DNA of 64,000 bases. It comes from Obrimoposthia wandeli. Its lineage: Eukaryota. Positions 4,984-46,186 of the stretch are shown here, piece after piece (position 1 is the first letter of the stretch; every line of letters starts with the position of its first letter). The notes beneath the pieces were generated by a model. The model was given only the letters and a program-made list of their open reading frames with translations. It made no database searches and was not told where the DNA came from. The stretch lies in contig CDROCS010002398.1 in assembly GCA_977020255.1 (NCBI GenBank), positions 310,001 to 374,000 on the forward strand, written 5' to 3'. A program made the position numbers and the translations under genes.

Positions 4984-5361
4984 ATGAAGTAAGTCAGTTT
5001 GAATTTATTAATTAATATATATTCTAGTTCGGACGAGATAACAAAAAGCGGAAGAAAACTACTCGGTTCGCGTTTCAATGGAGTCTACAGCCTTGATCAC
5101 ATCCCCTCTTTGACTCGACTAGGTGGATATGTAATCAATACACATTCATCTAATTTGCGTGGTGAACATTGGATTGCAATACATGTTAAAGAAAATGAAA
5201 TCTTTGTTTTTGACCCCTTTGGGATATATTACCCTTCTAAATTAGTATCTACAGTACTTGATTCTGGAAAGAAAGTACATTTTAGTAAGAAACATTATCA
5301 AAATGTTTTAACACAGTCATGTGGACAACTCTGTCTGCTTTGGTTAAAGCATAAACAATAG
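4984..5361 (+). CDS. Adenain-like cysteine protease, 2 exons (intron 4989-5027)
   Basis: GEHWIAI (His), FDPFG (Asp), YQ...QSCGQLC (Gln/Cys); ATGAA|GTAAGT...TTCTAG|TTCG splices to MNSDEITK in frame. Confidence 0.9.
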
Positions 5362-5397
5362 ATATAAACAATATCAAATAAAATTATTGCTATAAAA

Positions 5398-5907
5398 ATG
5401 TCTGTTTATTTTATTGATTTTGAAGCTTTTATTGATAATAATACTGAATTTGTAATAAAAGAACTATGTATAATGGATGTGGATGCAATCTTCTATCCTA
5501 GACATTATGTTTTTAAAATGCAACCCATATGGGACATGATGAATAGAAAATCAAGAAAAATAAATAGATATCTCATTAAGCATTACCATCGACTAAAACT
5601 AGTTGATGGTAATAGTTATTTCAAGATACAAGAAATAACTGAGGAAATAAAACGTTGTTGTGATGTATCCAAATCAATTTTCTATGTTTTGGATGAAAAT
5701 AATGAAGCTAAAATAAAGACAATCAATAAATATTTTCCTGAATTTAGAGTGATAAATTACTCGAAAACATTAAAACAATTAAATCCATCAAATATCAATT
5801 GTCCATATATTAAACATGGCGAGCATTGTGCATACAAGAAATGCTTTGCAGCTAGTTTGAATTATTTAAATATTAATGAAAATTCAACTACTCACATCTG
5901 TCAGTAA
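5398..5907 (+). CDS. DEDD-like 3'-5' exonuclease-type protein
   Basis: N-terminal YFIDFEAF...IKELCIMD (DxE), C-terminal CPYIKHGEHCAYKKC; paralogue at 43659-44146. Confidence 0.6.
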   Translation: MSVYFIDFEAFIDNNTEFVIKELCIMDVDAIFYPRHYVFKMQPIWDMMNRKSRKINRYLIKHYHRLKLVDGNSYFKIQEITEEIKRCCDVSKSIFYVLDENNEAKIKTINKYFPEFRVINYSKTLKQLNPSNINCPYIKHGEHCAYKKCFAASLNYLNINENSTTHICQ

Positions 5908-5957
5908 ACTATTATGTTTTAAATTAATCTGGTTGGTTTAAATAATGAATGAATCTG

Positions 5958-5991
5958 ATTGGCTTAATACTAGCTCGAAAATAGTATATAA
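5958..5991 (+). promoter_or_regulatory. CCAAT (ATTGG) and TATA box upstream of pPolB
   Basis: ATTGG at 5958-5962 and TATATAA at 5985-5991, about 50 nt before the ATG at 6039. Confidence 0.5.
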
Positions 5992-6038
5992 GCAAGCATC
6001 AATCAACAAATAATCCCCTATTATAAACGAAATTGAAA

Positions 6039-8827
6039 ATGGTAAGTTTATTGTTATTTTTCTGCTAATTTATTTCTTTCTAGAATTGCAATATGAACAA
6101 AGAATTATGCTTCGAGGAGAGTCACAAGGAATGTGACGGAAAAATGAAGAGCTACTTTGGACAGAAGTTCAACGGACAACAATTCTACGTATGTCCAGTA
6201 TGTCTCTCCGCGGAGGAGATTGATTGGTCGGAGTTTGTGGCGCGTCATCGTGTCCATCTTCGTCATTTCCAGCAACGTAGCAAGAAGGCCATCTTTCAGA
6301 ATAGATCTGCTACTATTTCTCGGGTTGCTGGTCCAGTTGTTGCTGCTTCGCCAATTGCTGCCCCTATTGCTGCTGTTCCAGTTACTAGTCCAGTTGCTTC
6401 GCCACCATCTGTTGTATCAATGGTTCCAGTTATGCCTCCTCCAGTTGGTATGATCCCCGCGCCGTTACCAGCATCTACCCGCAAGAGAAGTGTTATGCCC
6501 ACTTCAGGTAGCTCTGTTGCGAAGTTTTCCAGGGTTGATGCTGTTAAGCGTAAGACTAGTCTTCGGGGCACGATTGAGACATTGTCATTAGATGTTTCTA
6601 ATGACAATCTCATCAATTTACAAGTTCCTGTATCCCTTTTGACTAGCTTAAGGGACACAGTCAGCAAGTTTGCGACTTGCAAGGTTCAATTCGGGGTGCG
6701 TGTTGAATTTTCCAATATTGGAGAAACACGCGCTTGGAATTTTTCCAATAGAGGGCTCCCCATAGATGAGGGGTTTATAGATGCGAGAGTAGATGGAATC
6801 AACAAGAAGATTGAGAATTATTCCCAAAGTAGCAGTAATTGGGTAGTGAACCGCTTCCTGGAGATTTCGTTTGTTGTGACTAAAACAACAACAATGAACT
6901 ATATCCAGGGAAGTAGTTATATACCTACTCCATCTGAGTTAGCACTCTCACATTGCATTATCAATGTGCAGAACTCAAACACTTTTTGCTTCCTTTACAG
7001 TATCTTATCTGTACTTTTCCGCGAAGTATTTCGCTCTAATCCTCATCGGGTTAATCAATATGATGCCTTTTTGAGTCAATTAGTTTTTGATGAGAATGAG
7101 ATGCCGATGCGTCTATGTAATATACCGCGATTTGAGAGAAAGAATCCATCTCTTTCAATCAACGTATTTACATTCAATGGGTTCTCTAATGTGCAAACAG
7201 ATGGAGATATCTTCAAAAATCCCTATGTGGATGTCATTTACAGAACCACAAACCCGGACGCTAAGCCAATCAATCTTCTCCTTTTAGAAAATAATGATAA
7301 TTTTCATTATGTCGGTATTCCTAAACTCAATAGGCTGCTTAATTATAGGAACAGATGTGTATCTAATCGCATCCAGTGTACTTGGTGCCATAAGTGTTTT
7401 CATAGCTTCCGGAGACCAATAAGTTACGCCAAACACGTTCCACTCTGTAGGATGAATTTAGATCATACAACGCTTTATTCAATGCCTACAGAGAAGCATA
7501 TTGAGTTTAAGGACTTTTCAAAAACGATTTCTCCGCCTTTTGCTGTTTACGCAGACTTTGAGGCTGTGCTACCGCCGCATGGAATCCACCATCAGATTCA
7601 GCTTCCAATCTCGGCCGGTATGCTCATGTCTCCCGTTGCAGCCACGAGAGGGTATACACATGATTACTCGGTCTTTACCGGAGAATCTTGTGTGGTATCC
7701 TTTTTGCAGAAATTAGAGGACTTGGCGAAAGAGGTTGTACTCCCATGGTACAAGAAGCATGCGATCGAGGTGATGCGATAACTCACACAGGAACAGGTAT
7801 CGAGTTTCAATGCAGCAAGAATCTGTTATCTGTGTAAGAAGAAACTCGCAAACAAAGTTCGAGATCACGATCACATGACTGGCGAATACCTGGGAGCAGC
7901 GCATACGAAATGCAACTTATCAAGGAGAATCAATCGATCTTTTCCCGTCATTTTTCACAATCTTATGGATTATGACATGCACCACATATTGAAGCACGCA
8001 CTATGCAAGTTTCCCGACTGGAATGTATCTGTTATACCTCAATCAACAGAGAAATTCCAGGCTATGATGGTGTATATTGGAGGAGTCTGTATATGTTTCA
8101 TCGATTCCCTTCAATTTTTGAACAGCGGACTTGAAAAACTTGTGGAAAACCTGGGTGTGACTCCTCTTACACATTCGGTCTTCCCGCAACATCTGGTGAG
8201 CGCCAAGGGAATCTTCCCATACGATATGGCAGTATCAGAGACTGCTCTTCGTGCAATCACCAGCTTACCGCCAAAGTGGGATGAGAAGATCAAGCCAGCA
8301 CAATATGAAATGGCGAAGATGGTCTGGACTCAGAGCGGCTGCTCATCGCTCTGGGACTATATGCTGGTCTATATGAAGATGGACGTCTACCTTCTAGCAG
8401 ACGTGTTTACAGCATTCCGGACCAAGGCCATTGCTGACGATGGATTGGAGCCACTCAATTTCTTATCCATCCCTGGTTTGTATTTTACTAATTTTTTCTA
8501 ATTTTAGACACTAACACATATATATATATATATACATGTATAAGAATAAATGTAGTACTTGTTACTATTGATTACATAAAGATGCAGGTTTTTGCAATAT
8601 AGATGCAGCACGTCTTTGTAAGTATTGATGATTGTCTTTGTTAGACACACGTGACTATCTTTGTAGGTATTGATTACTGTCTTTGTTAGACACACACGTG
8701 ACTGTCTTTGTTAGATACTCATATATATATATATATATACATGTATAAGAATAAATGTTACTATTGATTACATAAAGATGCAAGTATTTGCAATATAGAT
8801 GCAGTACGTGACTGTCTTTGTTAGATA

Positions 8828-8876
<49 letters not shown>

Positions 8877-10416
8877 AAGAATAAATGTTACTATTGATTA
8901 CATAAATATGCAAGTATTTGCAATATAGATGCGTGACCGTCTTTGTTAGATAGATGATTTTCAAAGTAATGATTTTCACAATGATTTTAATAAATGATTT
9001 TATTTCCAGGACTGACTTTCGCGAGTGCTTTCAAATCCCTGCTTCGTCCGGCTTCTTCTTCTGCTCCCGTTGTGCGAGTCGAGCTAATACAGGATCCAGA
9101 AATGTACCGACTCTTCCGGTTTGGGATTCGCGGGGGTATGATTTTTTGTTAATGAACACCGCGTTGACGCCATCAATGGTACAGAACTTTTGTACATTTA
9201 TGTAAATAATTTGTACGGGTGGGCTATGTCCCAGTTTTTACCTTGTGGTAACTTTTCCTGGGTGACTGATCGGTTAGAGTTGGGGAATATTATTTCCAGC
9301 TTAAAATCAGTAGATTTATCCTGTAGTCGCTTCGCTCATTTATTGGAAATAGATTTATCCATTCCCTTTGAGCTTCATAATAAATTCGACGATCTTCTCC
9401 TTGCTCCCATTAAACAGCGTCCACCAGGGTGTAAGACTGAAAAATTGTTATTAACGCATTACCCTAAGAAACATTATGTTGTGCATTCTAGATTGCTACA
9501 AATGTACGTTAGACTTGGTGCTAAGGTAGATTTTGTATATAGAGCAATACAGTTTGAACAAACTAATGTTTTTTCAAAATATATTGAGGATAATTCTCTC
9601 AAAAGAGCTGCGGCTACAACAGATTTCGAGCGGGATTATTATAAACTGAAGGTGAATTATTTATTTGGAAAACTCATTGAGAATCTGATGAAAAGAATTA
9701 ACATCCTGATTTGTAATACTCCACAGAAGCTGGTTACCTATTGCAGTAAAGCCCACTTTCGTAGGACAATCGAAATCGATACGGACCTTATTGTAGTTTT
9801 ACTGGATAAGGAAAATATTGTTTTGGATCGTCCTAGTTACATGGGCCAGGCGGTATTAGATTTAAGCAAACTTCGTATGTATGAGCTACAATATGAGCAG
9901 TTGGAGAAATATCGAGTTCAATTTAACTGCGACATTAGAATTATAGCGGGTGACACTGATAGCTTTTTCTTGGAGTGTAATAATGTCAATGTTCAAGAAT
10001 CACTGTTACCTGCTATGATTGCTGATGGAATGTTGGATACCTCGAAATTTCCAAAAACCAATCCGCTTTATACGACGCTTAATACAGCGATAGGAAAATT
10101 TAAAGATGAGAGTAAGGGATTATTTAGTTATAGGCAAGAGATTTTTCTACGACCAAAATCATATAGCCTAGAGACTACAGAAGGTGAATCTCAGATGAGA
10201 GCGAAAGGTATTAGGCACTCTAATTACTTAGCCGTATATGAGAGTGGCGTTAGCGAGCGTGTACAACAACAACGTATAAGCTCGCTAAATCATCAACTTT
10301 TTACTGTAAGGTTAAGTAAAATTGCCTTAAGTAGTAGTGATGATAAGCGCAAGTGGGTGGAGAAAAACCGTTCAGTCGCCTATGGTCACTTTTTATACCC
10401 GGACGAGGTTGTATAA
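6039..10416 (+). pseudogene. polB: Protein-primed family B DNA polymerase with endonuclease VII-like insertion; introns 6042-6083 and 8476-9009
   Basis: AVYADFEA (ExoI), CYLC..DHDHMTG..CN (endo VII-like), FHNLMDYD, KLKVNYLFGK (motif B), GDTDS (motif C), GKFKDE, LRPKSY; in-frame TAA at 7779-7781; +1 frameshift in the T-run 9142-9147; motif A reads YIYVNNLY (Asp replaced by Tyr). Confidence 0.95.
8476..9009 (+). other. 534-nt GT-AG intron in pPolB with (TA)n tracts and internal tandem repeats
   Basis: CCTG|GTTTGT ... ATTTCCAG|GACTGACT splices to SIPG-LTFASAFK...ELIQDPEMYRLFRFGIRGG, which continues the pPolB sequence in frame. Confidence 0.85.
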
Positions 10417-10437
10417 ACTTTTTATATGTGTTGTACA

Positions 10438-10960
10438 TATTTTTATTCTCCTTTGTGATTTTAAGGAATATATGTGTTTGAAAGACTTGTCTTTATTTTA
10501 AAATTATTTACATAAATTTGCAGGTTTTTGCAATATAGATGCAGTACGTGACTGTCTTTGTTATTTGTTATTTTTATTCTCCTTTGTGATTTTAAGGAAT
10601 ATATGTGTTTGAAAGACTTGTCTTTATTTTAAAATTATTTACATAAATTTGCAGGTTTTTGCAATATAGATGCAGTACGTGACTGTCTTTGTTAGATAGA
10701 TATAGGAACGTTTAAACATGATTATCAAATTATATAATACTTTATTTTATAAGTAGATAGTTTAATTTAGTTTAAATAAATTTATCAAATTATATAATAC
10801 TTTATTTTATAAGTAGATAGTTTAATTTAAATTATAAAACACACACACACACACACTAAATGTATTTTATAAATTTATCAAATTATATAATACTTTATTT
10901 TATAAGTAGATAGTTTAATTTAAATTATAAAACACACACACACACACTAAATGTATTTTA
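10438..10960. repeat. Tandem/direct repeats downstream of pPolB
   Basis: A ~130-bp unit duplicated (about 10438-10697), plus a TTATCAAATTATATAATACTTTATTTTATAAGTAGATAGTTTAATTT unit three times and (AC)n tracts. Confidence 0.85.
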
Positions 10961-11035
10961 TTGAATTGGTGTTAATACAGTCTTTAGATAAAAGATATAT
11001 AGATTTAAAGAATGTTACTAAAAATAGAATCTTTT

Positions 11036-11521
11036 TGACCTCACCGTGACCTTAAGTTGTCCTCATGACGTCATGACCTTAAGTTGACCTTAAAGTACAT
11101 TGTCCTCATCATGAGCTTAACTTGACCTTAAAGTACATTGTCCTCATGACGTCATGACCTTAAGTTAACCTTAAAGTACATTGACCTTAACTTGACTTGA
11201 CCTCATGAGGTCATGACCTACATCTTGTCCTCACCGTGACCTTAAGTTGACCTCATGAGGTCATGTCCTCACCGTGACCTTAAGTTGACCTCATGAGGCC
11301 ATGTCCTCATCGTGACCTTAAACTGTGCTCAAGGGGGGGGGGGTATACTCAAAAAGTCTTTGTCCTGAAAGACACACATCCCCCTACTTGATGTGTGTCT
11401 TTCAGGACAAAGACATTTTTCCTGTGCATAGGGGGGGTCATGACCTCATGAGGTCATGACCTACATCTTGACCTCACCGTGACCTTAATTTGACCTATAT
11501 TTTTTGTCCTCAACTTGACCT
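11036..11521. repeat. Subterminal array of TGACCT/AGGTCA hexamers
   Basis: More than 20 TGACCT/AGGTCA copies counted by eye, plus TGTCCT variants. Confidence 0.9.
11356..11414. repeat. Perfect 25-bp inverted repeat with 9-nt loop, made of terminus-like sequence
   Basis: GTCTTTGTCCTGAAAGACACACATC-CCCCTACTT-GATGTGTGTCTTTCAGGACAAAGAC. Confidence 0.95.
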
Positions 11522-14472
11522 TAAAAAATTTTGTCCTCAGGGGGGGGGGCTTTGTTCCAGAAGTCACACATCTACCTACTATCGTCACTTTTGGATAGAA
11601 AGATATTTGATAATAAAAATATAGTATAAAATTGAAAGTATGCAACTTCTTTGAGTATAGAAATAAAGAATCTTCTACAAAACGAGAGAAAAAAAATGCA
11701 TAGAATCTGAAGTTTTACTTTTATGTGTGTATTTATCTTGTATTTTCCTTTATTAAATGACCAACAATAATATTGCAATAATCTACACAAAATTTTACAA
11801 TTTTCCTTAAAAATATTTACTAAATATTTCCGAACTTTACAGTTTAATTTAAAATGTTGAACAATTTACAAATCTACGACTAAATATAAGTATAAATCTT
11901 TATAATTGTAACATATTCTATAAACTGTTTTCCATGTCAGGTCAGGATGATTCAAAATAATTTTTACAAATTAAATTCTTAGAAATTCACGATAAACTGT
12001 TTGTATTCCTTTTTTTATACTTTATTATTTTTATTGTGAAAAATGTGTTTAGCTATTTTTCGGACCTATGCAAAAAGTACTGTAAATGGAGAATTTCATT
12101 TTGTTAATCGGAAACAGATGGATATTCGATGCTGGAGGAAATTTTGGGAATTTGCACAATGTAGACACAGTGACTGGTTCCTCTATCGAATTACATCCGG
12201 TTGACTCCAGTAGCACTGTAGGTGCCGGATGACCAGAATAATTGGCTGTTTATCCCATCGACTATGTATCCCAACACACAAAACAGGGGTGGCTGATTCA
12301 TAAAAGACAGGCGTCCCGCCATATGTCTACTAACAAATCCCTATTACTTTGATGTGAGACCTCGTCATTTGGCAGCACCACCAGCCGCCGCGCGAGCAGC
12401 TGTTTGAGGAGAACTGTGAAACTGAGAATTTTATTTGATTTGGTCAAAGGCTGTATAGTGCTGCTGCTGCCGTAGAAGTTGTATTCCAAAATATATATTT
12501 TCGTAAATCTATTTTGTTTAAATCAGTTATGTATAGGATACAGGAGAACCATGACTTTCCGGTTTTGTCGAAATTGCTGAACCGGAATACAACAATAAAA
12601 AATCGGGCAAATGTATCTAAATCCGAAATGTCTTGAATATATGTTTTGCCCGTCTATATTGTGAAAACCTCTGGTTTTAAAAAGGTCATAAATGAAACCC
12701 TGTTTGTTCAAATCAATTTAACCAATATTGATTCATCAATACCCTTTCTACCTGTTGAAATCGTAAGCGATTTCTTTGTTTTGTAGGTATCTTAAAGTTG
12801 AAATACAATCAAGATTTCACCTATCCCCCACCTGTTAATTTCGTAAGGGTCCCACAGGTAAACAGATAACTCAGTTTTAGAAAGAACCCCGTTTCAAAAT
12901 CATGATAACTCTCAGATTTCGTAAGGGTCCCACAAGTAAAGTTGTATCCACGTTCTCGAAAACAGATGGATACCAACTACATGTCAATTTTGTTTTAATC
13001 AACCAAACCATTATTTATTTGAAAAGGATTTACATATTAAGTGAGTGAGTATTATACTTAAATGAGCGAATAAAGTTTTTTAGCATGAATATTCATAAAA
13101 TCCTCATATAAATTTTAACAATTCTTTTCAGTATAATTAAATTAATTACCATACAAAAATATTTTTTTTTGTGAAAAAAAGAATTTTGCGAAAAAATATG
13201 TAATACATAAGTTTTTATGTTGGTTTTATTGGTCTACACGCTTTCTTTTAAGGGCTATTGGTTAATTCTTTGCGGCTGGTGCAGCTTTGCATTTTTAAAA
13301 TCTTACAGCCATTTTAAGAATAGGTTTGTATATGCAATCTTTTAAATAACTTAAACAATTATATCTGGATTGTCTCCATTCTTCGTTGTCGAATCTGATC
13401 ATACACCATTTACTTGAATTTTTAATTGATCAAATGTTCTCTTGATGTTTACATTTTTTCAGAGCAGTTGGTAGGTAAATAATAAATTTTTGCATAAACA
13501 AATATTTGTACTTTTTCCCCTTGATAAGCTGTGGTACATAATTTTACGACATTTGACTGAAATTTGCGTCACGATCTCTTGATAAATTCACGATTATCAT
13601 CTCATAACGACTAGAAATTGAGACATCTTTTATAAGATCTTTGCTTTCTGTAGAGAATTATTTTGTAAGGATTCCACGTTATCAACCGTCAATGAATCTT
13701 CTCGGAATAAAGTCATATTTGTTTTCTATTATATTTGTTCCAAAGAAAGTGCAGATCAGTCTAAATTTTTTATGATCTAACCAATTTTTATTTGAGTTTT
13801 AAACATGAGAACTTGCATTGTCTTGTTTAAGGAATGATAATTTGTGCTATTTTAACCAATTATAAATAGCCCCAAACCACAAATATTTGAATTTCTAAAT
13901 ATTACATGCTTCAAATCGTGACAATAAAATCATTTCTTAGTGTACGTTCAGTGTAAATCTGTTTCCTCGCTTAATTCAATTAAATTTGGATTAAATTTTT
14001 CGGTTTTTGATAAAAAATTTCCTATTTCATTTGATATTTTTTCCGGAAGTCATTTTAAGCTTCGTGACTAACTTGTTATTATAACCTGAAAGCCGCCTTC
14101 TTGGATGAGGTTTAGCGCCAGCAATTTTTTTATTAATTTTCCATATGAAGAATAATTTTTTATTGTTGTTTTATGTCATTTTTAAGTTCTTGACCACGAA
14201 ACATCCACTTCTACCTTTAAAAGAATAATAAAAAAGTTCGTATTAATTTAATCTGTATATTTAATTATTTAACACTTTAAATTGCAAAAATTCCTAACTG
14301 TATGTTAACGAAAATAATCGATGTACATAAAATATTACTCAATAGCTAAATATTTCCTTAGGATTCAGTTAATTTCCACTTTTCCCGTTGTCAAATAGAG
14401 GCATACAACCCCCAAAATGAGTAACAAAACATGCACAAAATGCCAACAAAGTCTATTTTTTTTCTCAGAAAA

Positions 14473-17400
14473 TTACTCGCTGTAGCTCTCGGATGACTGA
14501 ATTACAAAATGCACAACTCCTTTGCGAGTAGGAGCATTGGAGGCCCAATAAGTGACCGCACGGGATCAGCGAGCAGAAGACAGGCTCGTCCTCACAAATT
14601 TCGCAAAAGACAGTTTCATCACTCAAAGATTCATCCTGAATTGTTATTTATGAAAAGTAATTTTTTGAAATTTTAATTAAAAAAACAATTTTTTTAATTA
14701 AAGCTTAAACAGATTAGGAAACTCACAAATCTCTTTTCCAGTCTCTCGTAAAGTGCATTCCATGATTTACTTTCTGTTTCAGCGTGATGGATTGGTGATT
14801 TACCAATCTAAATTGAATATAAAATTTCAGGGCAAATAAATAACTCACTTTGTCAACTAATTCGATGTGTGCTCCATTGTTGAGAAAATATTCCAAAACC
14901 CTCAACTTTCCTCTTTGAACAGCATTAAAAATTGGTGTTCTTCCCAGCTAAATTAAACAAGCCAATGTTAGATGTCGAGGGTGAAAAAACCCCACAATCA
15001 AACTAGGTCTACGTAACTCACAGTTACTGTGTGAAATGACGAGAGAAAAATTTGACAAACTCTAAAAATTTTAGATCATTAAACACATCATGGAGTTCCC
15101 GTTATTTCTCCGAGGGAACAAAAAAGTATTCAAATAAGATATTCCATTGACCATACAATATGGAATCCATATGTTAAATCCCAGGTGTCTCATAACAAAG
15201 CCTTTGGCCTCAAAAGTCATAATATTATAAAAAGTTGTATTACATCGACAAAATAATAAATTACTAGATATTAAATGCAGTTTATTCTCAAAATTGTTCT
15301 TCTATAGTGCGAACCGGAAGAATCTAGATACCAGAGTAGAAGACAAATAGTTTAACCCATGATCAATATAAACGATAGAAATCACGACGTGTTGCATCAA
15401 TGCAGGACTTTGCAATCCATTTTTAAAGTTTTTTTGGCTTCGTGCACGATGGCAGTACGACGTAAACTTGAAAACATTTTAAATAAGCTTTTTGAAATTT
15501 GGACAGCTTTTAAAATTCTCGAAGAACTAAAGAGCTGGTCATGCTGACTTGGTCAGTGGATCTATCACCAGACAGCTTACTACATCCACACGAAGATTAT
15601 CAGAAGAATTAGATATTCCTAGAACTGTATGCAGAATTTTGAAAACAATCCTGCAGCTCAAACCCTGGAGACCTGCCACAGTCCTATTTTCCCAGATAAA
15701 TGGATTAGCAAATTCGGGACCTCCGAGGATCATCAGCTTAACTTCGCGTGATAACTCCGCTCTGGGTATTGTCAAGCAACGGGTGGTGTCTGCTAATGCC
15801 AAGGTTCGTATGGCTTTTGCATAAGTAAATCCTTAAATGCCTCGAGAAAAAAAAACACAGTTGATCAATTGGACAGTTTAAATTACGCATTGACAATTAT
15901 TGTGTTGAGATCGATCCCCGTGATAACTAATCCTTATTTGGACTTTATTGTCGATTTTACAGAATATTGTACGTGTTGTTATAAATTCTTGTTGGTTAGA
16001 GGTATTTCTGACCCACCTTGTACACAAACTCATTGAGAACTTATTATCCCTATTACTGAAGAAAATAACCAGCTTTCAGTATTTTTTCTCACAATTTATT
16101 ACTCCCAATCTCTTCGAATCTTATTATCAGTGTTGGCATTTAATCTGCTTAATCCTTAATCTGCTGAAATATTCTATCAAATTCTCTACAATTACCAGTT
16201 GGATTAAATACACAGTAAAAACGATTATAGAATCGCTAAAAAAGAATATGGTGGCTATATTGAAAATAAACTGTATTTATATATAGTTTGTTCTGACGTG
16301 AGGAGATTGTTTTCTTTAATTATTTACTAATATTAAATTTAATTTGTAATTTTTGTTTTAATAATTCTACGTGTTAATGACATAAAAAAGTAAATAATAA
16401 TAAAATTTATGATTATCGATTTTTTGTAAATTTATGCATATGGCTAATAAAATAGCTTCTACAGATGAAATTTGGGGGAAGTTAGCGCATCTTGGGATGA
16501 AATTAGCAATGTAAGTCAACAATGAAGACAAGATTGTGAATGCTATGCATCAAGGGGTATTAGTGGATGATGAATACATAGCTTCGCTGTTGGTTAAGGA
16601 GATTGAAGCCATTTTCTGAAAATATGAAGTAGTCGTTCTTGATGGATTTCCAAGAACAGTTAATCAATTAGAAATGTCTTTAAAATGTCTATCCATTATG
16701 CAGTATTTTATTATTTATTGGGATGAATTGCCTCTCAATTCCCGGTAGAATATTTTGTAGTTGTGATATACCCGGTTTATTTGTTGGATTGATCGAAAAA
16801 ATGCCTTGGTATAAAGGATGGACTGTTAAAAGTGATTTATGTGAGTTAGTAGAAAATAAATATAAAACATTTTTATTCTATTTTTTTTCCCGAAGACATT
16901 TAGTCATTTATTATTTTGTAGATACTTTCAATATGGGAAAGGTATAAAGGTTTCCCAGAAAATAATTTTAAAAATGAGAAAAACAATTTATTTTTCTATC
17001 ATGATAAAAAAATTACGCAAGGTTGAGGAAGAGTAAAAAAAATTCTAACAAGGAAACGTTTCGCACGGTCATAAAAAGAACTCAGTGAAATTTTAGTAAA
17101 TGATAAATATTGCAATATTAAAAATGTAGTTTTAGTTGTTATTTATTTATAATAAAAAAGTTATATGTATTAAATTTTTATCAAATAAATTTTATGATTT
17201 GGTTAAATTGAAATAATTAGTCGCCACATTAGCAGTTTTGGGTTGATTTTTAGCCAACACTTCACCTTATCTTTAGAGTTGATGTCTATCCCAGCTTTGA
17301 CGAAATATTTCACCAACCCCAAATGTCCACTCGAAGCCGCAAAATGTAAACACGACTCCCCATTCTGCGAAACTAAACGGAAGTAGACTAAAATTAACAA

Positions 17401-26760: not shown

Positions 26761-26854
26761 TCATTCTACCACAACGAGGGCAGCTAGCAGTGCATCCTAG
26801 CGATATACATGTTAACATTGTTACAACAACAACAAAAACGATATTTAACTAATT

Positions 26855-33832: not shown

Positions 33833-33869
33833 TAATATAAACAATATTAAAAATGAAAGAGTATATGCA

Positions 33870-34559: not shown

Positions 34560-34687
34560 GAAATCAAATAAAAGAATCATTAAGAAAAAATAAGTGAAAA
34601 AATTAATCAAATCTGTAGTTAGAAATAAAAAAAAACTTAAATGGCTTCGAATATAAACAATATTTAAATTGAACCTTTTTTATTAAA

Positions 34688-35017: not shown

Positions 35018-35045
35018 ACAATTATTTCTAAAATCAGCTAAAGAT

Positions 35046-35264
35046 ATGGGTGCTAGCCCTTCTTTACCTAAACTTAAATTTTCTTTCTATTCAAATTGTT
35101 GTAATGGAGAAGATATGGTTCAATCCAAAAGATTCAATTGGCTACACCGGAGTTTCAAAATTAGCAAAAAGAACAAAACAAAATTACAAGAAAACGCAGA
35201 AATGGCTGAGCGACCAGTTAGCCTACAGCCTGAACAAGCCGATGAGAAGAAGGTTTCCAACTAG
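35046..35264 (+). CDS. Small putative N-myristoylated protein overlapping the integrase
   Basis: MGASPSLPK...SNCCNG; conserved with the ORF at 1255. Confidence 0.55.
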   Translation: MGASPSLPKLKFSFYSNCCNGEDMVQSKRFNWLHRSFKISKKNKTKLQENAEMAERPVSLQPEQADEKKVSN

Positions 35265-36132: not shown

Positions 36133-37186
36133 ATTCTATGTATATGGTTTTACCAAGTAACGGTTGTCCGAAGACTTAACCATATAATGACGCTAGTAGC
36201 TTTATTATCGATTGGGAAAATTCTATAAATCTCCAAGGAGAATGGGAAGCGGCTTTAACAGAATTTTCTTTTTATTATTCTCCAATTACTATCAAAAAAA
36301 CTCACATATCTCGTTTACAAAAGAAGTTGATAATGAAATAACAACTGAAGTTGTGATCGGGTTTGATAGTAAAGGACAATTCTATTACAATAGTATAGAT
36401 AAAGAAGTGAAAGTAATATTTGAAAATAACAAAGTCAGATTTAAAAATCGATTAAAAGTTCTTCAAGTTATTAAAATTAATTTTGAATCTAAAAAAGAAG
36501 CTCTTCAATTCAGTTTTGATAGTGAACAAACAGTAGCTCGTAATAAACGGGATATTATCTCATCTAAATCGGTTAGAAATGTTCCTGGTAGAGTAGCAAA
36601 AGTGTTGTTACTTGAAACGAGACCAAAGACTGTAGTGGAACTGAAAACGTTTTCAAAAGATTATAAAATAGATAGTGAAGTGAATTTCTGTAAATTAATA
36701 CAGAAGGAATGTAGTGAATATTTTGATAAATGTGAAACATTAAATGGTAAATTAACGTTTACAGTAAAGAGCAATATAAAACGAGTTTCATTTGATGATA
36801 AACTCGCTAAAAACCTTGGTTTAAACAGAAATACCTTTGAAACCCATACAATAAAAACCATAAAAGCTAAAAATAAGGCAAAACTTTTAAATGCTGTTAA
36901 TCATTTATATATTTATACTAATTTAATAGAACCAACGCTTGTAGGAGGACAGCGAGTTCCACTTTTGAGAACAATATGGATATCTAAAAATGAAACTAGA
37001 GATGGGGACGCTGTCGGTATGTGTATAGATCAACCAATGTATCTTCCAGTTTCTCTCTTTTCTATAAACAATATTGAAGTAAATATTAGAGATGATTCCG
37101 GACAACTAATAGATTTCACGTACGGGGCCAAGACAAGTTTAACAATACATTTAAGAAAACAAAATGGCGAATCCAGCAATAATTGA
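36129..37186 (+). pseudogene. Minor capsid protein (penton), N-terminal frameshifts
   Basis: MNSMYMVLPSNG start; LYIYTNLIEPTLVGGQRVPLLR, MYLPVS, NIEVNIRDDSG. Confidence 0.88.
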
Positions 37187-37541
37187 AGCTTATAGTCAAA
37201 GCCAACAAGGTGGAGAATTACCATATTTTGTTGGTAAACAATACGGATCTGGCTGGCTTAGAACATTAGGTAGATTTGCCTTTCCTCTTTTAAAGAGACT
37301 CGGGCGATTTATATCAAAATTAGGAAAGGATTACCTTTCATCTAAGGACAACAAACTAATACCAACTTTTAAGAAGCATGCGCTTGATGAACTTGATAAT
37401 GTTTTACCTGAAGTTGCTGATTTGATTAGAAAACGTAAATCAAATAAAAGCCAAGGAGGTAGTGGATTTAAAAGTAAAAAGAAGCTAAAAATTAATATAA
37501 ACAAACGTAAGAATGTTGAAGGAACAATATTTGCAAAATGA
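37164..37541 (+). CDS. pX-like small virion protein
   Basis: QQGG-ELPYFVGKQYGSG-WLRTLGRFAFPLLKRLGRF; paralogue of 3355. Confidence 0.75.
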   Translation: MANPAIIEAYSQSQQGGELPYFVGKQYGSGWLRTLGRFAFPLLKRLGRFISKLGKDYLSSKDNKLIPTFKKHALDELDNVLPEVADLIRKRKSNKSQGGSGFKSKKKLKININKRKNVEGTIFAK

Positions 37542-38767
37542 GTTGCGCCAAAACTGAATTATGTATTTTTGATAAACCGCTTCCACAAGTAGTTGTAGAT
37601 AATGCTTCCTTTGAAGAAATATTCCTAGTTAACTCAGTTTCAGGAACCACTTTAACCGATTTAGAATTTAATATTAATGGTTCCAATAGCGAGTATTTAG
37701 ATTTGAATGATACTTTGCTTTATGTTCAAATAAAAGTATTAAATCGGGATGGTACTAATTTAGATGAAAATGCCGATGTAACACCTGTAAATTATCTCTT
37801 TAATTCTTTATTTAATGATTCCATTGTTACTCTTAATAATGTCAAAATTGAAGGTGGAAATTCTTCCTATGCTCATAAAGCTTTGATTGAAAGTCTTTTG
37901 AATTATAGTACTGATACTCAAAATACTAATTTGGTAACCATTGGTTATGATAAAACTGTTGCAACTCGCAAAGAATGGATTGCAGGTTCTAAAGCTTACG
38001 AAATGTGTGGGTCTTTGAGATTGAATTTCTTTGAACAACCGAAATATTTAATTCCCGGTGTTAATGTACATCTTCGTTTGAAACGTAATAAATGGAATTT
38101 TTCTTTGATAAGCGCGGACCTTTTAAAACCTAGACTTGATATTTTGGATGCAAAATTGTATGTTTGAAGAGTTTAAACCGAGCAATCAGTTTTAATGGCA
38201 CATAATATAGGAATGGAAAAAAACAATGCTTGTTATCCTATTAGAGAAACTAAACTTATATCTTATTCTTTAGGTACGGGTACACAAGCTTTTAATAAGG
38301 ATCAAATTTTTGGTGATGTAAGATTACCGAAATTCATTTTAATTTCTTTTCAAAAACCTGCAAAGTTTCTAGGAAATTATACGACAGATGCAACTCAATT
38401 TGACAATCTTAATGTTGGTTCAGTGACACTTTCAAGAAATACTGATTATCGTGAAACATATAAAACAGATTTCGAAGGTAACGCTTATGCTTTGGCTTAT
38501 ACGCAATCTATTATTCGGAATTTGGGTCAACTAGATAAAAATATAAACAATGGTATTTCTTTCACTGAGTTTAAAAGCAGCTGCCCGTTCTTCACATTCG
38601 TTTTGGCACCAGACTTTGATATAAACCAATGCCAACTACCAAAGGATGGAAATTTACGACTAGAAATTAAGTTCAATGCAGCTTTAACACATCCTACTAC
38701 GGTGCTTATTTACGGAGTATTTGATTCGGAAATACAAATCAATAAAAACAGAACTGTCATATTATAG
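37538..38767 (+). pseudogene. Major capsid protein (hexon-like) with two in-frame stops near 38165-38176
   Basis: Both ORF halves are in the same frame; LYV*RV*TEQSVLMAH aligns with LLVRRVKVEPSVLVAH of element A. Confidence 0.92.
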
Positions 38768-38768
38768 A

Positions 38769-39149
38769 ATGGAGTAAGACATATTTTAAATTTATATTTA
38801 TTAATTTTTATTTAGTTCAAAACAAGTAAAAGAATCAGCAGAGAAGGTCCTGGGTGATAAATTCAATGGAGTTTATCCTATTGATATGATTCCATTTTTT
38901 TAATCTGGAGGTTACATTATCAATACTCATACTTCGAATTTACCAGGAGAACATTGGATAGCTATTTATGTTAGAGAGTGGACAATACATGTATTTGATC
39001 CACTTGCAATGTATTATCCACACAAACTTGTTTCAACTATTCAAAAAGGACGAAGAAGAGTATTTTACAACAAGATACAATATCAGGATCCTGCGACGAG
39101 AAACTGTGGACATTTATGTATTTTATGGTTATCGTTGCAAAACAATTAG
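38769..39149 (+). pseudogene. Adenain-like protease, intron 38774-38815, frameshift in a T-run near 38895
   Basis: ATGGA|GTAAGA...TTTAG|TTCA gives MDSKQVKE; NTHTSNLPGEHWIAI; YQDPATRNCGHLC. Confidence 0.85.
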
Positions 39150-39408
39150 TGTGTTATAAAAATAAAAATTTTAAATGTTTTATTTTGAATTATTTTTTAA
39201 ATCTCTAAAAATATAAGGGTAAAATAATAAAAGACATAAGACAATTTTTTTAATACATTTATTAATCACAACATCACAATGAGATATTTCAGCAAAGATA
39301 AGGTCCATCCTAAAAATGTATTGAAATAACAAATAAGTTAGAGTCTAGGTGCCATAGGGATCTAAAATTAAAAAAAACTAAACTAAAAAATCAAAAAATG
39401 AAAACCGT

Positions 39409-42400
39409 TTAAATTCTGAAGTGTCCATAAGCCAGGCTAGCGTTCTTTTCTATCCAAAAGCGCTTGTCTTCATTACTACTCAAAGCTATTTTGGTTGATT
39501 TATGGGAATACAGTTGATGGGCTCTTGAAATAAATCTAGTTTGCTCAACGCTTTCAATACACCCAGTATCATAAACTTTCCGGTAGGCCTCATGTGTAAG
39601 ATTGTTTCTTCCCACACCCTTTGCTCTCATTGAACATGTATTATTAGATGCATGTAAACTGTAGCATTTAGGGCGTAGGAAAATACAATCATCATACGAA
39701 ACCTGTCCCTCGCTTTCATCCTTAAATTTCCCGATAATGTCCTTTAAACTCATAGAGTGTAGAGGATGGTTAGCGGGATATTTATGGGTATCTAGTAAGT
39801 TGTCCCTAAATTTTTCCTAATAATTTCCCAAGAGCTTAATGTACCCAACGCATATTTAAGTATATGATGCAAATCATATCCTTTGAGGTTATGAAACACG
39901 ATGGGAATGCGTGGTTTTTTAGGGAGACGACGGCCAAGGTTACAAAGGTTGCACGCCGCTCCCAAGTATCGCCCCGTAACATGATCGTGATCTCTGACTA
40001 ACTTAGACTGGGTTCCACACAAATAACATAATCTACACGAATTAAAATTAACCCAGTCTATGCCTGTCATGATCATTGCTTGATGAGCATTGAGATCATA
40101 CCACGGTTTGACAATTGTTGTTCCTAATTCCTCTAATTTTGACATAAAATCTAAAATACAATTTGGACCGGAAAATTTATGATACTGGGTAATATTGGGG
40201 CCTAAGAATAGTAGTCCTGCCGAAGCCGGTAGGTGAATACTCTCATACTGGTCGTGCAATGCTAAAATTGACTCAAAATCTGCATACACCCTGAATTCCA
40301 CGGGTATGCATTTTGCCCAATCCCTGAATTTTAAATCCTTATCCTTAGGCATGCTATATAGCGTATTGTCATCAGGATTCAGTGAACATAATGTCAGATG
40401 TTTGCTGTAAGAGAGCTCGGATCGGAATCCATGCAAACATCTATGACACCACTTACACCCAGTGGTGGGATTCAAACTGTTTAGGAACCGGTTCGCGCGA
40501 ACCGGTGCGAACCCTTGAATCCCACCACTGATTATATAACAGTATCATGTGATAAATTTAATATTTAGTGTATCATATTATAATATCCCATTACAAATTA
40601 CATGTAAAACACTCGATATAATTTATCATTAAAATATATTTATCAATTTTACTTAAACGGTTGAACCATTGTTATATGTAGAAGGTTCATTTCACCATAT
40701 TATATATACATGAAAAAATCTGTGCTCTGATTTTTTTATGTTTAAATATTAATATATTGTAGTTAAATGTTTGCTGAATTTTAATAATAGTTTCGAAATT
40801 TTGACTTTCCCATTAATATTAATATAAGAATAAATTAAAATTAAAATAAATTACATTAGTACATTAGCTAAGATATTTTTTGACGTAAATTATTCATTTA
40901 TAAGACTATTTTATGCTGCAATGATAATTTTGATTGTTTATTATATTAATATGTATTGTTTAAAGTAAAAATAATACATTTGAATTTATATATACATTAT
41001 ACAGAGGAAGCATATGTTAGTACGCGTTCAATCAACGAATTAAAAAATTATATCTTTTTTATCCAGATGATTATGTACGTTTCAGTCGAAGAAGGTAGTT
41101 CAGGCGGTTCTGCGAACTTTTATATTTTTAGGAACCGGTTCGCGCGAACCGGTGCGAACCCTTGAATCCCACCACTGCTTACACCTTATCCTAACCGGTA
41201 AGGCTCCATTATCTAAATTTAGAAGACGATCTAAACTGGGAATTGTAGCATAATGGAATTTATTATTCTGTTTGAGCAAAATGAAGTTGACCTGAGTCCC
41301 CTCATATTTGCTCCTATAAATTACATCTACAAAAGGATTTTTAAAAATTTCTTTATCTGTTACATAAACTGGGATATCAGTATTACATTTGAATACATTA
41401 ATACTCAAGTTATTAAGATGTTCAAATCTTGATATCGCAGTTAATTTAACAGGAAAATCTATTCCATGATACTGCAATTCATTTAAAAAAGGGTATATTT
41501 ACTGACACGCTCTCTATGCTCAGTAATTACATCCCTTTTGAGGATGGCCAACACGCTATACAGAAAGCAAAAGTTATCACTGTTTTGTACGTTAACAATG
41601 GAACCTGAAAGTTGAAGAGATCTAGGTGAAGGAATGTATGAACTCCCCGAAAGATATATCATGTCAGTGAACTTTGTTAGAACAAAGCTAACATCGTGAA
41701 TTCTAACTAGAGTCCATCCACTACTTAACTCGCTATAATTAGCAATTTTTTCATCCAGGTTTCTTCCAATTTCAGTTACAAAATTATCATAGAAAACAGT
41801 TGCTTTATGTGAAATTACCCAAGTTTTAGTCTCCTCATTGACATTTTTAAACTGCACTGTTGCACAAAATTGAACCTTAGCCTGTTCTAATTTAGTCACT
41901 TCTGATTTTACAAGATTTTCAATATTTGAATCTACACCTACGTTTAATAAAATTTCATTTCCTAATGGCACCTTAACTATAACATATTTATTATTTAGGT
42001 GATACTCTATAGTAGCACCGTTTTCTCTACGTTTTTTTGGTGGGACCTTATTAAGAAATTGGCCTCGCCTCTTTCTTCCGTTTGTCGCTGACAAACCTCT
42101 CCCTAATTGAACGGGAAGACAACTAGTTATATTAATCGCAGCTGAGGTTGAAGGTGCTGCTATTGGTGATGCTGCCGATGTTGAGGCAATTGCAGCTAAT
42201 GTTGAAGGGGCTACTGTAGCAGGTGCTGCTATTGGTGATGCTGCCGATGTTAAGGCAATTGCAGCTAATGTTGAAGCGGCTACTGTAGCAGGTGCTGCCG
42301 ATGTTGATGAGACAGTGGCAGTTGTAAAGGCTTCATTTGAAGCTGACCTTGCCGATGAAGAAGCGGCTGTTGTAGAGAAAATTGTAGAAATTCTAATTGG

Positions 42401-42462
42401 TGAAATTCCGATGACTGGAAATCCGATCAATTTCTTCTCTGCCTTTTCTTGTGTGACGACTA
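39409..42462 (-). pseudogene. polB: Protein-primed PolB, internally deleted (polymerase core missing) and interrupted by a hAT MITE
   Basis: INVQNSDNFCFLYSVLA, VYADFES, CYLC..DHDHVTG, FHNLKGYD, then a jump to GKFKDE/LRPKCY/SSNEDKR; motifs A, B and C are absent. Confidence 0.9.
40460..41177. mobile_element. Non-autonomous hAT-type element (MITE) with 8-bp TSD CTTACACC
   Basis: TIRs CAGTGGTGGGATTCAA / TTGAATCCCACCACTG; CTTACACC at 40452-40459 and 41178-41185; removing it restores RIRCKWCHRC in PolB. Confidence 0.92.
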
Positions 42463-42559
42463 CTGGAAACGATGGTAATTTGTTTGGATTTATATAAGAT
42501 TTACCTTTATGTGGTTCGGACGCTAATGGATTTCCTCGGAATTGGTGTGTTGGCGATCA

Positions 42560-42840
42560 ACTGCAGACAATTTCTTCTCTAATGTGGCGATCAACTGCAG
42601 ACAATTTCTTGAAATTAGCAAACTGCTTGGTTAATTTTCTGCTTCTCTGTATTGGCGACTACTTATCTGAATCGGCTTCTCTGAATTGGCGCCTGCTTTC
42701 TAATTCCAACTTCTCTAATGTGGCGACTGCTTTCTAATTCCAACTTCTCTAATGTGGCGACTGCCTTCTAATTCCAACTTCTCTAATGTGGCGATCAACT
42801 GCTTTCTAATTCCAACTTCTCTAATGTGGCGATCAACTGC
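42560..42840. repeat. 34-38 bp tandem repeat in the PolB 5' region
   Basis: TTCTAATTCCAACTTCTCTAATGTGGCGA core repeated about four times, plus partial copies. Confidence 0.85.
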
Positions 42841-43658
42841 AAATAACGGTAAGTTTATTTGGTTTTATATTAAATTACCTCGTCAGTTGTCTCCTGTCTT
42901 CAATCGGTTCTGCGATAATTCTCCTAATTGGTATTCTTCTGGTTCGCACTGTGGATAGCGGTAATTTAATTTGTGTGTATCGATAATTTTACCTCTTCAG
43001 TTGTCTCCTGATCTGGTTCTGCTGGCGCGACGGTGATTCACTCGGCTTGTGGAGATGTGTGTCTCTTGCTGGCCCGATCCTGGTTTCTCGATGACGATGA
43101 CTGTTGCTGGCTGCGAGACTGTGATTCCGTGGGAAATTAATCAGCACCTGTCAATTATGACAGTTTACATGCAAATTAACTCCGCTTACCTTTGATGCCG
43201 TTTGACTAATCCGGCTGGCTCCCACGATAACGCTGCTTGTTAATTTCCCCCTCGTCGATGATTTCTTCTTGTAAATTAATTTATTCGTTTCTTTCTTCTT
43301 TGCCTTCTCGTTTCTAATTTCTTAGTTTTGATTTCTCGTTTAACTCTTGTATTTTGGGGCCCTTTATTTAATTTCAACCCCCTATATATACTGCGCACTA
43401 CACACGACCTTCGTGGTCCTTAATATTTAATTTTACTCTTAATTTTACTATTTTAATACTAATATTTAATTTTTTATTTTAATTATAACCTTGCTTCCAA
43501 GGATTTTATTTCTATATAATTTAGATCAATTATTTAATTTTTTCAATTCCCTATCCTAACAATTGGTTGAAAAAATAATTTTATTCCTCCAATCAAAAGG
43601 CTTATTTGTAAATAATTGTAAAATTTTAATAATGAATTCCTCCAATTAGAATAATTGT

Positions 43659-44146
43659 TTATCTACATGTCAAATAATAATAAGAAAGACTTAAAAAAAT
43701 TTTATATGCGCAATGGTCACCATGATTACGATATGGACAGCAAATATTTTGTGGAATATTTAATAGATGATCACGTGAAATATTTAAAGTATTCAACCTC
43801 AATTTAGGAAAATATTTTTTTAAAGTCTTATATTTTTGCCATCCATTTCATCTAAAACATAAAAAATTCCATTTTCAATATCAAAATTAGATTTAATAGT
43901 ATCGAAAATACATATTTCACAAAAAGCCTTATGTCCTTCTTTCCATTTTAATAAATGGAAATATTTAGTTATATATAAATTAGTACATTTTTTCTTATAA
44001 TCTAAACTTTTAAATGGGATATCTATATGAAATATGAAATGCAAAGGATGAAAAACGTCGCATACATCCATAATACATAATTCTTTTATAATATAATCCC
44101 CATTTTTGTTAATGAAAGCCTCAAAATCTATGATATATTCCTGCAT
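43659..44146 (-). pseudogene. DEDD-like exonuclease-type protein, frameshift near 43825
   Basis: YIIDFEAF...IKELCIMDV; continues in another frame as ...CCPYRNHGDHCAYK; paralogue of 5398. Confidence 0.65.
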
Positions 44147-44293
44147 AATTACCCAAATTGTAGCAAATCCCGTTGTTTATAACGAAAAACTATTAATCAA
44201 AAATTTATTAAAATGACAAGGTAGTATTTAGACAATTTTATATTTAGACAATTTTATAACATAATCAATAAAGACAAAATAATAATCAAAAAT

Positions 44294-44614
44294 TTATTTT
44301 TTTGTGGAAGGACCCTCTTCCGGTTTAATCTGGAGGATTCGCTTTCTTGCTGCTCGCCGAACATCCTCCGTCTCTTCTCTTCTTTTTTCCTCCACCTTCT
44401 TTTTTTCCATTTCGATTTTCTTGTTCCACTCCACAACCCGACGTCGTTCTGCTAGCCGCCTGTCCTGAATCTCCACCCGACGATTCCACTCGGTCGCGAA
44501 AGCAGTATATAAATTCTGGTTGAGGATCCTCTTTCGTAAGTCTCCTTTCTTCACATTTATTCTTATGTTTGCCTCGATCTTCGTCACCAAACTTTGCAAT
44601 TTAATAAATTCCAT
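44294..44614 (-). CDS. Charged coiled-coil hypothetical protein
   Basis: 106-aa ORF with an EWNRRVE/EWNKKIE internal repeat; TATA-like element upstream near 44650. Confidence 0.55.
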   Translation of the reverse strand: MEFIKLQSLVTKIEANIRINVKKGDLRKRILNQNLYTAFATEWNRRVEIQDRRLAERRRVVEWNKKIEMEKKKVEEKRREETEDVRRAARKRILQIKPEEGPSTKK

Positions 44615-44790
44615 TTTTTAATTATGAAGATGTTAATAAATTTGAACCTATATATATAAATTTAAGATATTTTTAATCCAATCACAAGCAATTAAAATAT
44701 ATTTATCAAATGAAAGTTTAATAAATATATAACTAATCATTGCATTTATATTTAATCCTAAAAAAAATTAATTATTCCTTAACAATCCAA

Positions 44791-46186
44791 TCACATTCGA
44801 ATGGCCCGCTTTGTCCTTTTCTTAGGGAAAGGAGTAACTTCTCCCCAAGTCTCCTCAATTATCCGGACAGGTTCCTGCAAATGAAAATAAAAATAAAATT
44901 TATAATAAATTTTATTTAATTAAAAAAATATTTAAAATACCAAAAAATTACCTCAATAATCTTATACGGAAGTTTTTCCTGCCGCTCAATCGTTACTTCA
45001 CTCGAATTGAGCAGACAGGATTTCGCCTTTCTAAGACGCCGTGTCTTCCGTACAGCAGCCTGCCTCGTTCGCTTCTGCGGGAAAGGAGAAATTTTGGCCC
45101 ATGTCTCCTCAGTTAATATTATTGGTTCCTGCAATAAAAAAACATTAATAAAATTTAAACATATAAATAATTTACCTAGATGACGGGCAGATAAGCCTGT
45201 TTCACCAACTTGGCCTTCTTTCGATGGACCGTATTGGTTTTGACCCGATGGCATCGAGGTTTCTTAACTGCCGCTTGCTTCCTATCGACAGGAAGTCTCC
45301 GAGATGCCTCCTCCCAAATTTCCTCCACCAATTCAGCTTCCTAAGTGAATAATTAAATAAATTTACCTAATTTATAATAATATACCTCAATTTTAGCCGG
45401 AGTCGGTAGGTATCTCTGATCACTCCTGGGATCATCCTGGCTACATTGACTCGCCAAGTGATGTCTAACCTCATTCGTCGCCTTTATCCTCCTAACAGGA
45501 CGTATCGGAGATTGTGGCCTTCTGAATGGATCAGGCACTGTATTGTCGGGTATCGGAGTCGGAGTTGTAGAGGGAGTGAGACCATCCCATTCGTCGGTGA
45601 ACAGATGCCACTCATCTTCATCCATTTCTGCAACCATGGACTCGTTGGCTCCTGGGGCTCCGATACTTGGCTGTATCCACTCATCCTCCCCATCCGACGG
45701 AACGTCATCAGTAAACAGCTCCTCGTCTGAGTCTGGTGCCAGTATTATCTCCGGTTGAGACAGCGGGATCAATTTCCAGGGGCATTTGATTGCCGCCTCA
45801 ACATTGTCAAAGAGATTGGATCTCCTTGCTGCTACTGCTGAAGTTGCCGGACGATTGGCTTCTGTGTTCAGCCTGGGAGTACAGTCTTCCCAATTCTCTA
45901 TCGAATCCTGACTAGTCAGATCGATATATTGGGATCTCTGTACCCCACTTCGCACGCTCATTGGTTCTTCTCTTGGAGTTGAGCTGGCCAATGGCGGTTC
46001 TTCTAGCAACAGTTTGGCTCTTGCTGCTGCTTCTCCTTCGTCTCCTTCACTCACCACCGACGAGTCTTGACTAAGTAAGTCAATGTACTGTGCCGGTGGT
46101 GGCGTTCGCTGCTGTACTGGAGAGAGATCCCCATACAGCTGAACCTCCGTCTCTTCATCCAAATCGACGTTTTTGAAATTTGACAT
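44791..46186 (-). CDS. 4-exon acidic/basic protein with SUMO-interacting-like motifs (introns 45341-45385, 45129-45175, 44875-44951; TAG at end of exon 2)
   Basis: ATG 46186 after a TATA box; YIDLLSQDS and YIDLTSQDS; exons 2-4 start EAELVEEIW / EPIILTEETW / EPVRIIEETW; phase-0 GT-AG junctions. Confidence 0.7.

Follow-up and report, generated by a model that had tools for sequence, protein, structure and literature searches.

The 64,000-nt stretch of Obrimoposthia wandeli DNA analysed here (the window; positions 310,001 to 374,000 of the forward strand of contig CDROCS010002398.1, numbered from its first letter) sits in a 1.35-Gb assembly, GCA_977020255.1, and holds two Polinton elements in whose genes short GT-AG segments occur. 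Element A contributes its right-hand 11.6 kb (1..11580, plus strand), the left end lying upstream at L021:5082 and the whole measuring about 16.5 kb, and element B is 15.6 kb long (31941..47494). Sequence comparison shows B to be homologous to A, and both have terminal inverted repeats starting AGTAG and a 6-bp target duplication. By their core gene set and terminal repeats, A and B are Polinton/Maverick elements of the eupolintovirus type (Eupolintoviridae). Family A is young and abundant, with at least 40 copies at 98-99% identity in the assembly and 1783 exact matches there to a 24-mer at the A protease start. Labels of the form L### denote loci and P#### database proteins, and A, B, C (L071) and D (L073) are Polinton families of this genome. 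With good confidence, though on the strength of aligned homologues, we take the two Polintons to carry ordinary, largely constitutive spliceosomal introns, with the site in the protease gene lying at the same base across relatives.

The adenain-like protease gene of A begins with an exon made of the start codon and two bases (4984..4988, plus strand), followed by a 39-nt intron in phase 2 of codon 2 (4989..5027), identical in 19 of 20 A loci, and by a second exon (5028..5361) that is open for 110 codons and contains no methionine. This exon matches PF00770 at E 5e-4, just below the cut-off, and a profile of the protease matches adenovirus protease 1avp at E 4e-7 with the catalytic His and Cys aligned. 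The B gene (38769..39149, plus strand) has the same build, with exon 1 at 38769-38773, a 42-nt intron in phase 2 of codon 2 (38774..38815) and exon 2 from 38816; its intron is present at 39-42 nt in 29 of 30 B loci, and the window copy has a stop at codon 29 of exon 2. The initial annotation of the window had placed a phase-2 intron straight after the start codon in A and B, with a remnant in a decayed relic, and had proposed that one intron is conserved across diverged copies. Both proposals are borne out: the relic keeps the remnant at 28036-28067, its ATG gone, and aligned homologues show the intron in families A to D and in 12 metagenome loci. Within this genome L071 (37 nt) and L073 (35 nt) are interrupted at the same phase-2 site. 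So are 12 of 80 metagenome loci, namely L115-L125 and L130; these are the loci nearest the query, with identities of at least 46%. Printed rows of the other 68 loci are without such an intron, most having an in-frame ATG and about seven being unreadable. A positional check of 12 distant intronless loci placed the ATG precisely two codons ahead of the homologous codon, and 29 of 64 homologous proteins begin at the position two codons before it.

Taken together, the 16 intron-bearing rows (the four families of this genome and the 12 metagenome loci) have introns of 35-43 nt that fall in all three classes modulo 3. In line with U2-type spliceosomal introns, all 16 have a GTRA donor and an AG end, and the acceptor is YAG in 15 of the 16 as given, the exception being AAG in L120/L121. 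The interiors are as unlike one another as shuffled sequence (0.644 compared with 0.637, over 66 pairs from 12 lineages). Fixed ends combined with free interiors and lengths are the pattern that splicing selects, and this supports the intron reading. A search of the assembly for an intron-free form of the A protease start returned no match, and in IMG/VR only two distant protease loci were found. The 11 best-scoring database proteases (P0001-P0007, P0009, P0010, P0013 and P0014; not P0008) comprise five with odd N-terminal extensions and six with late starts. In five close database proteins the extensions are hydrophobic and end in Ser at the intron site, and they could be the product of read-through of an acceptor. 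On inspection by eye no trans-splice acceptor is conserved ahead of the protease ATG, and a poly(A) word follows the protease stop in 5 of 15 rows, so is not conserved either.

A branch with support 95/81 in the protease tree puts the intron-bearing loci (14 of 80 rows) on one side, and so does a branch with support 96/99 in the capsid tree, where they make up 15 of 35 rows. The protease tree leaves out families C and D and the relic, whose match was too short, together with four duplicate loci; the capsid tree holds 35 of 57 rows after thinning of distant near-copies, L115 and L116 being without a capsid stretch. The best fit is likely a single old gain of the protease intron with some losses. 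L117 has 65-70% DNA identity to this genome and no close match in the assembly, so the intron site predates the families found here. The suggestion that the lineage is adapted to the spliceosome of this particular host does not hold, given that the protease intron is common to 12 metagenome loci and that L117, the one tested, is so distant.

Other introns in the two elements have narrower distributions. The protein-primed DNA polymerase of A, encoded by exons 2 and 3 (6084..10416, plus strand; PF03175, E 7e-10, on 7782-8498), has its start codon alone on exon 1 (6039..6041), and the window copy has stops at 7779-7781 and near 9140. A 42-nt phase-0 intron (6042..6083) follows the start codon in 20 of 20 A loci, measuring 43 nt in eight of them, and 8 of 9 usual B copies have a 47-nt intron at the polymerase start; L115, L116, L117 and L125 are continuous there. 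The core of the A polymerase contains a further intron that the initial annotation did not include (534 nt, phase 1, 8476..9009). The C2606 family has an intron of about 153 nt in the corresponding position, the frame being unbroken in B, L117 and L125. In the usual B copies the 5' part of the polymerase holds another two intron-like segments. The two-exon gene for a protein like the TATA-binding protein (TBP) in B (33029..33567, plus strand; PF00352, E 8e-12) has a 38-nt phase-1 intron (33159..33196) with a 38-nt twin in A at L021:8111-8148, and the gene is continuous in L117, L126, L136 and L137. The protease, polymerase-start, polymerase-core and TBP-like introns are each an exact insertion relative to continuous homologues. 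The polymerase-start and TBP-like introns, common to A and B, were likely gained later in sub-lineages, and as judged from these homologues the Polinton introns are nested: one old shared intron, then lineage-specific gains. A search of IMG/VR for the L117 polymerase found no relative.

Several further features of the polymerase genes were observed. The large A intron is swollen by repeats (window 8500-8950) that resemble the inner part of the terminal repeats. In L124 a 51-nt intron stands straight behind the polymerase ATG (L124:3635-3688), with a shorter N-terminus. The remains of the B polymerase (39409..42379, minus strand) are without about 1.4 kb of the core and their own 5' end, and contain at 40460-41177 a 718-nt insertion, absent from other B copies, with an apparent 8-bp target duplication.

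Three more introns are in gene X of B (44790..46186, minus strand), which encodes an acidic low-complexity protein from repeated exons and is broken in the window copy by a stop at 45176-45178 and two deletions. All three (44875-44951, 45129-45175 and 45341-45385, minus strand) are in phase 0 and are 87-91% AT, between exons of 48-60% AT, and the exons beside them resemble one another, with lengths of 165 and 177 nt. In five of six fully anchored B copies every exon length is divisible by 3, and the introns vary among B copies (44, 44, 47-49 and 77-87 nt). These introns likely arose by tandem duplication of an exon-intron unit.

The initial annotation listed eleven GT-AG segments, four on the plus and seven on the minus strand, and their coordinates, lengths and ends are all correct, as are those of the relic segment. 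The motif itself says little, since GTRA..YAG segments of 35-50 nt number 297 in the window and on average 376 in 20 shuffles; every segment was therefore tested against relatives. Seven of the eleven (the two protease introns, the polymerase-start and TBP-like introns and the three of gene X) are supported by this comparison as lying in viral genes and are likely to be true spliceosomal introns of Polinton genes. The claim that the segments lie in viral genes fails for the other four (42463-42504, 42837-42878, 42949-42992 and 43148-43189), and with them goes part of the claim that most segments restore or continue reading frames, as their surroundings are free of ATG and two of five pieces have stops in all three frames. 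The segment length is a multiple of 3 in 7 of the 11.

These four segments lie in 42380..43561 (minus strand), which by its copies is a foreign long terminal repeat (LTR) fragment of a giant, env-bearing Gypsy-type retroelement that replaced the 5' end of the polymerase in the window copy of B. Usual B copies are without this fragment and have the polymerase promoter, start and first introns in its place. Elsewhere, copies of the fragment occur as same-strand pairs 12-26 kb apart on five contigs, adjoined by gag, RVT_1, rve and fusion glycoprotein genes. Its exonic pieces contain no ATG in 836 nt, where 13.9 would be expected, and this together with the stops in all frames makes them look like a non-coding leader; 42463-43189 was accordingly rejected as a set of polymerase exons. 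The 42-nt leader intron at 42463..42504 (minus strand) is missing exactly from one LTR copy (L101), its flanks are exactly 42 nt apart at six other places, and the junction is spanned by 1 of 29 candidates. This suggests splicing of the segment and its loss on one occasion by way of cDNA, in a single case with 2-nt microhomology. The giant Gypsy element itself (L094-L112 and L231-L239) has env, dual-specificity phosphatase and RING genes and an LTR with a multi-exon leader.

Whether these introns are of host size depends on the class of host intron considered. The ankyrin-repeat gene of the host (17265..18393, minus strand), which has 99-nt exons of one repeat each and of which the assembly yielded no close second copy, contains eight introns of 38-52 nt, not of 40-42 nt as had been noted. 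Six introns of chaperonin genes in the assembly measure about 85-850 nt on a rough reading. The description of the Polinton introns as host-sized therefore stands for a short class and fails in general. The chaperonin sample was limited to these six introns, the searches returning many bacterial groEL operons; bacterial contigs with intron-free groES-groEL operons are part of the assembly at L256, L257, L259 and about 20 further places. Together with a rhodopsin-class receptor open reading frame (ORF; 51242-51937, PF00001), the intron-rich ankyrin gene suggests an animal host, the receptor being the stronger hint. A tRNA search of the window found none.

The remaining core genes of A include a packaging ATPase (131..796, plus strand; PF04665 Pox_A32, E 2e-6) and a retroviral-type integrase (1228..2340, plus strand; PF00665, E 7e-14). 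B has the PF00665 integrase match too, and its ATPase scores 21.8 bits with PF04665, just below the cut-off that the A protein exceeds. The major capsid protein (MCP) gene of A (3713..4952, plus strand) is frameshifted near 4840-4870 in the window copy and ends 31 nt upstream of the protease ATG; that of B (37520..38767, plus strand) has stops at 38165-38176 in the window copy and ends 1 nt upstream. ATPase, integrase and capsid genes are without introns in A and L117. The L117 MCP (P0167), 55% identical to that of A and 55-58% identical to those of A and B, has a predicted model with a pLDDT of 90, built from the aligned protein set because a sequence search of PDB with the capsid gave no match. 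The model matches the capsids of PBCV-1, iridovirus, Sputnik and mavirus at E values down to 1e-16, and the capsid of this close relative is accordingly modelled as a double jelly roll. Two minor capsid candidates (2420-3301 and 36200-37186) are proposed by position alone, neither matching Pfam. The decayed capsid-protease relic (26834..28250, plus strand) belongs to family D, grouping with L073 in the MCP tree at 100/99, and reverse transcriptase (RT) fragments (PF00078) lie beside and inside it (window 23900-30200). The A left arm (L021:7105-9682) encodes an IAP-like protein with BIR and RING domains, the TBP-like protein and a dual-specificity phosphatase, the phosphatase and RING genes being common to this arm and the giant Gypsy element, and at L021 ~8800-8835 another short GT..AG segment was read by eye between two small open frames.

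How the protease is expressed follows in part from its reading frames. Unspliced, the frame of the protease ATG stops after one or two codons in all 16 rows, and the A gene has no other methionine in or before exon 2, so the A protease needs splicing. There is no upstream in-frame ATG in 13 of the 16 rows, and in most rows the first methionine of exon 2 lies behind the catalytic His. From these frames we infer that host splicing is required for the protease in these lineages. The initial annotation had supposed that an isolated start codon could make both protease and polymerase splicing-dependent. The supposition fits the A protease and fails for the A polymerase, which is not strictly splicing-dependent because the fourth codon past the acceptor, at 6093, is an in-frame ATG.

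On the reading that we prefer, transcription of the elements would take place in the host nucleus, and the splicing machinery of the host would remove the introns, which are short AT-rich stretches near the host minimum size. In most lineages the protease would be made only from spliced RNA. The introns at the polymerase start, in the polymerase core, in the TBP-like gene and in gene X would be later gains in sub-lineages. What may keep the introns in place is that an element copying itself as DNA seldom loses them, and that an intron close to the 5' end helps expression or does it no harm. No regulatory switch would be needed to account for them.

A number of observations weigh against this reading. 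No spliced read has been seen. Four contig runs (kind unspecified, one sample) on L265, which spans A from its left arm to the polymerase start, gave flat cover in 30 of 30 bins, and none of the 15 joints listed, with 401 further joints beyond them, falls at the TBP-like, protease or polymerase intron, which is evidence in neither direction. Three of the 16 protease rows do have an upstream in-frame ATG, in B, C, L119 and L130 exon 2 has a methionine ahead of the catalytic His, and the A polymerase ATG at 6093 also offers a start behind the intron. The second polymerase exon of L124 begins about 19 residues further in, so that its site may be non-homologous. Gene X has no Pfam match, and a search among proteins of 146-468 aa gave no homologue outside this genome. 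As to the single gain, adding 24 database proteins leaves the protease tree unresolved at 115 columns; P0008, which has a methionine at the start and so appears intronless, groups among close relatives at 99/87; and a tree that unites the intron-bearing rows with the intron-hinting ones in one clade is rejected by a narrow margin (p-AU 0.04, 115 columns). Some members may have lost the intron, or its presence may fail to define a clean clade.

The position of the protease gene just behind the capsid gene allows other accounts of what its intron does. One, compatible with the reading of ordinary introns, is that a promoter within the last part of the capsid gene serves the protease and that the intron is the usual first intron of a one-gene mRNA, raising its expression. 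Eight of 12 intronless relatives have a TATAAA-like word 71-75 nt before the protease ATG, and TATA-like words stand 39-63 nt before the starts of the polymerase, gene X and TBP-like genes. However, none of 15 intron-bearing rows has a TATAAA-like word at that distance, and the word may be fixed by capsid codons where it does occur. We consider a separate promoter tentatively, as a possibility with somewhat more against it than for it.

A different account, which the promoter would not share, makes the intron a gate on a shared capsid-protease mRNA. Unspliced RNA would yield capsid only, and spliced RNA would also yield protease by re-initiation behind the capsid stop, such that intron retention sets the protease-to-capsid ratio; only at codon 2 would the intron remain within the 50-55 nt over which the capsid mRNA escapes nonsense-mediated decay (NMD). 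This idea fits the position of the donor, which in 15 of 15 rows is 1-47 nt downstream of the capsid stop, as well as the early stop of the unspliced frame and the lack of introns in the ATPase, integrase and capsid genes of A and L117. In 12 of 12 intronless rows the capsid stop overlaps the protease ATG or comes within 6 nt of it, the overlap being ancestral, and the available portion of PMC7888593 describes the 50-55 nt rule and the decay of spliced polycistronic viral RNAs. Donor distance and early stop are not independent evidence, however, because both patterns arise by themselves once an intron with a GTRA donor occupies codon 2 beside a stop-start overlap that is ancestral, and the junction rule comes from human cells and may not be that of this host. 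A gate of this kind seems to us unlikely. The broader picture of an old, widespread animal Polinton lineage marked by a start-splitting protease intron, used as a gate and pinned near the capsid stop by the NMD rule, is equally doubtful; if the gate existed, the elements would be tied to hosts able to splice introns of 35-45 nt.

It is also conceivable that no splicing takes place at the segments, which would then be AT-rich spacers or insertions, and that the proteins start at other codons. GT..AG segments of such size are no commoner than chance in the window, some lineages have alternative ATGs and no junction read was seen, all of which would suit this idea. Against it, the ends keep their exact base in 12 lineages in which lengths and interiors differ, and relatives show exact empty sites; in family A, moreover, 1783 exact copies of the start-donor sequence offer no other protease methionine. 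We judge this explanation very improbable. Insertion after integration by introners, that is, by an intron-making transposon as in the eupolintoviruses of dinoflagellates for which the available part of PMC12166617 gives a precedent, is the most remote of the explanations considered here, given introns fixed in whole families (19 of 20, 20 of 20 and 29 of 30 loci), common to several samples and, in the protease gene, without a common interior, although an ancient introner origin may apply.

The core observation is real and wider than first noted, and regulation by the introns is unproven. A capsid search at an identity threshold of 50% gave over 60 distinct clusters, and the virus group related to the intron-bearing elements is therefore large. 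An intron-bearing lineage would be mis-annotated, or scored as broken, by surveys that look for intronless ORFs. A conserved intron site would serve as a rare and slowly changing marker in a fast-evolving virus group, show dependence on nuclear host splicing and yield a dated succession of intron gains within a single small genome.

Spliced starts of the kind proposed here have a counterpart in adenoviruses, whose protease is made from spliced late mRNA and whose polymerase and pTP take their first codons from a small upstream exon. Those are long-range splices that share leaders, in contrast to the single introns of 35-50 nt described here. Among polinton-like elements, the viruses of cryptophytes also have introns near the capsid gene, but according to the accessible text of PMC12220804 these are self-splicing group I introns of 309-376 nt, unlike the GT-AG micro-introns found here. 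The dinoflagellate introners likewise put spliceosomal introns into polinton-type elements; these are repeated, transposon-derived and mostly post-integration, and the portion of PMC12166617 at hand describes no site conserved across lineages. The element from which 42380-43561 derives can be likened, by description only, to the giant Gypsy element Burro of planarians (PMC6431247, in part), which shares with it env-like and RING genes; here the separate ORFs occur with dual-specificity phosphatases in units of 12-26 kb.

The closest comparison is with the Mavericks/Polintons of animals (Eupolintoviridae, "adintoviruses"), which have the same protein-primed polymerase, rve integrase, A32-type ATPase, adenain-like protease and double-jelly-roll capsid, inverted repeats, a 6-bp target duplication and a length of 15-17 kb. 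That Polinton genes are usually annotated as intronless, as the initial annotation had it, agrees with what the available parts of two sources say of the core genes. Vertebrate Maverick core genes are reported intronless and elements were scored intact when their ORFs were intronless (PMC8097293), and nematode Maverick core genes are reported intronless as well (bioRxiv 10.1101/2022.07.12.499685). A further survey, as far as its available text goes, used prokaryotic gene finders and assumed endogenous viruses to be intron-free (PMC10120064). Nematode Mavericks do carry introns in the cargo genes wasp and krma, according to the same part of the bioRxiv report; there they arrive with captured host genes, whereas here they are in core viral genes that have continuous relatives. 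No report of a conserved spliceosomal intron in the core genes of a Polinton turned up in our literature search, Repbase reports, which may record spliced Polinton genes, being outside that search. Introns in polinton-type elements were already known; what is new in the elements described here, compared with animal relatives whose core genes are reported intronless, is that introns are fixed in the protease and polymerase genes and that one site is conserved across lineages.

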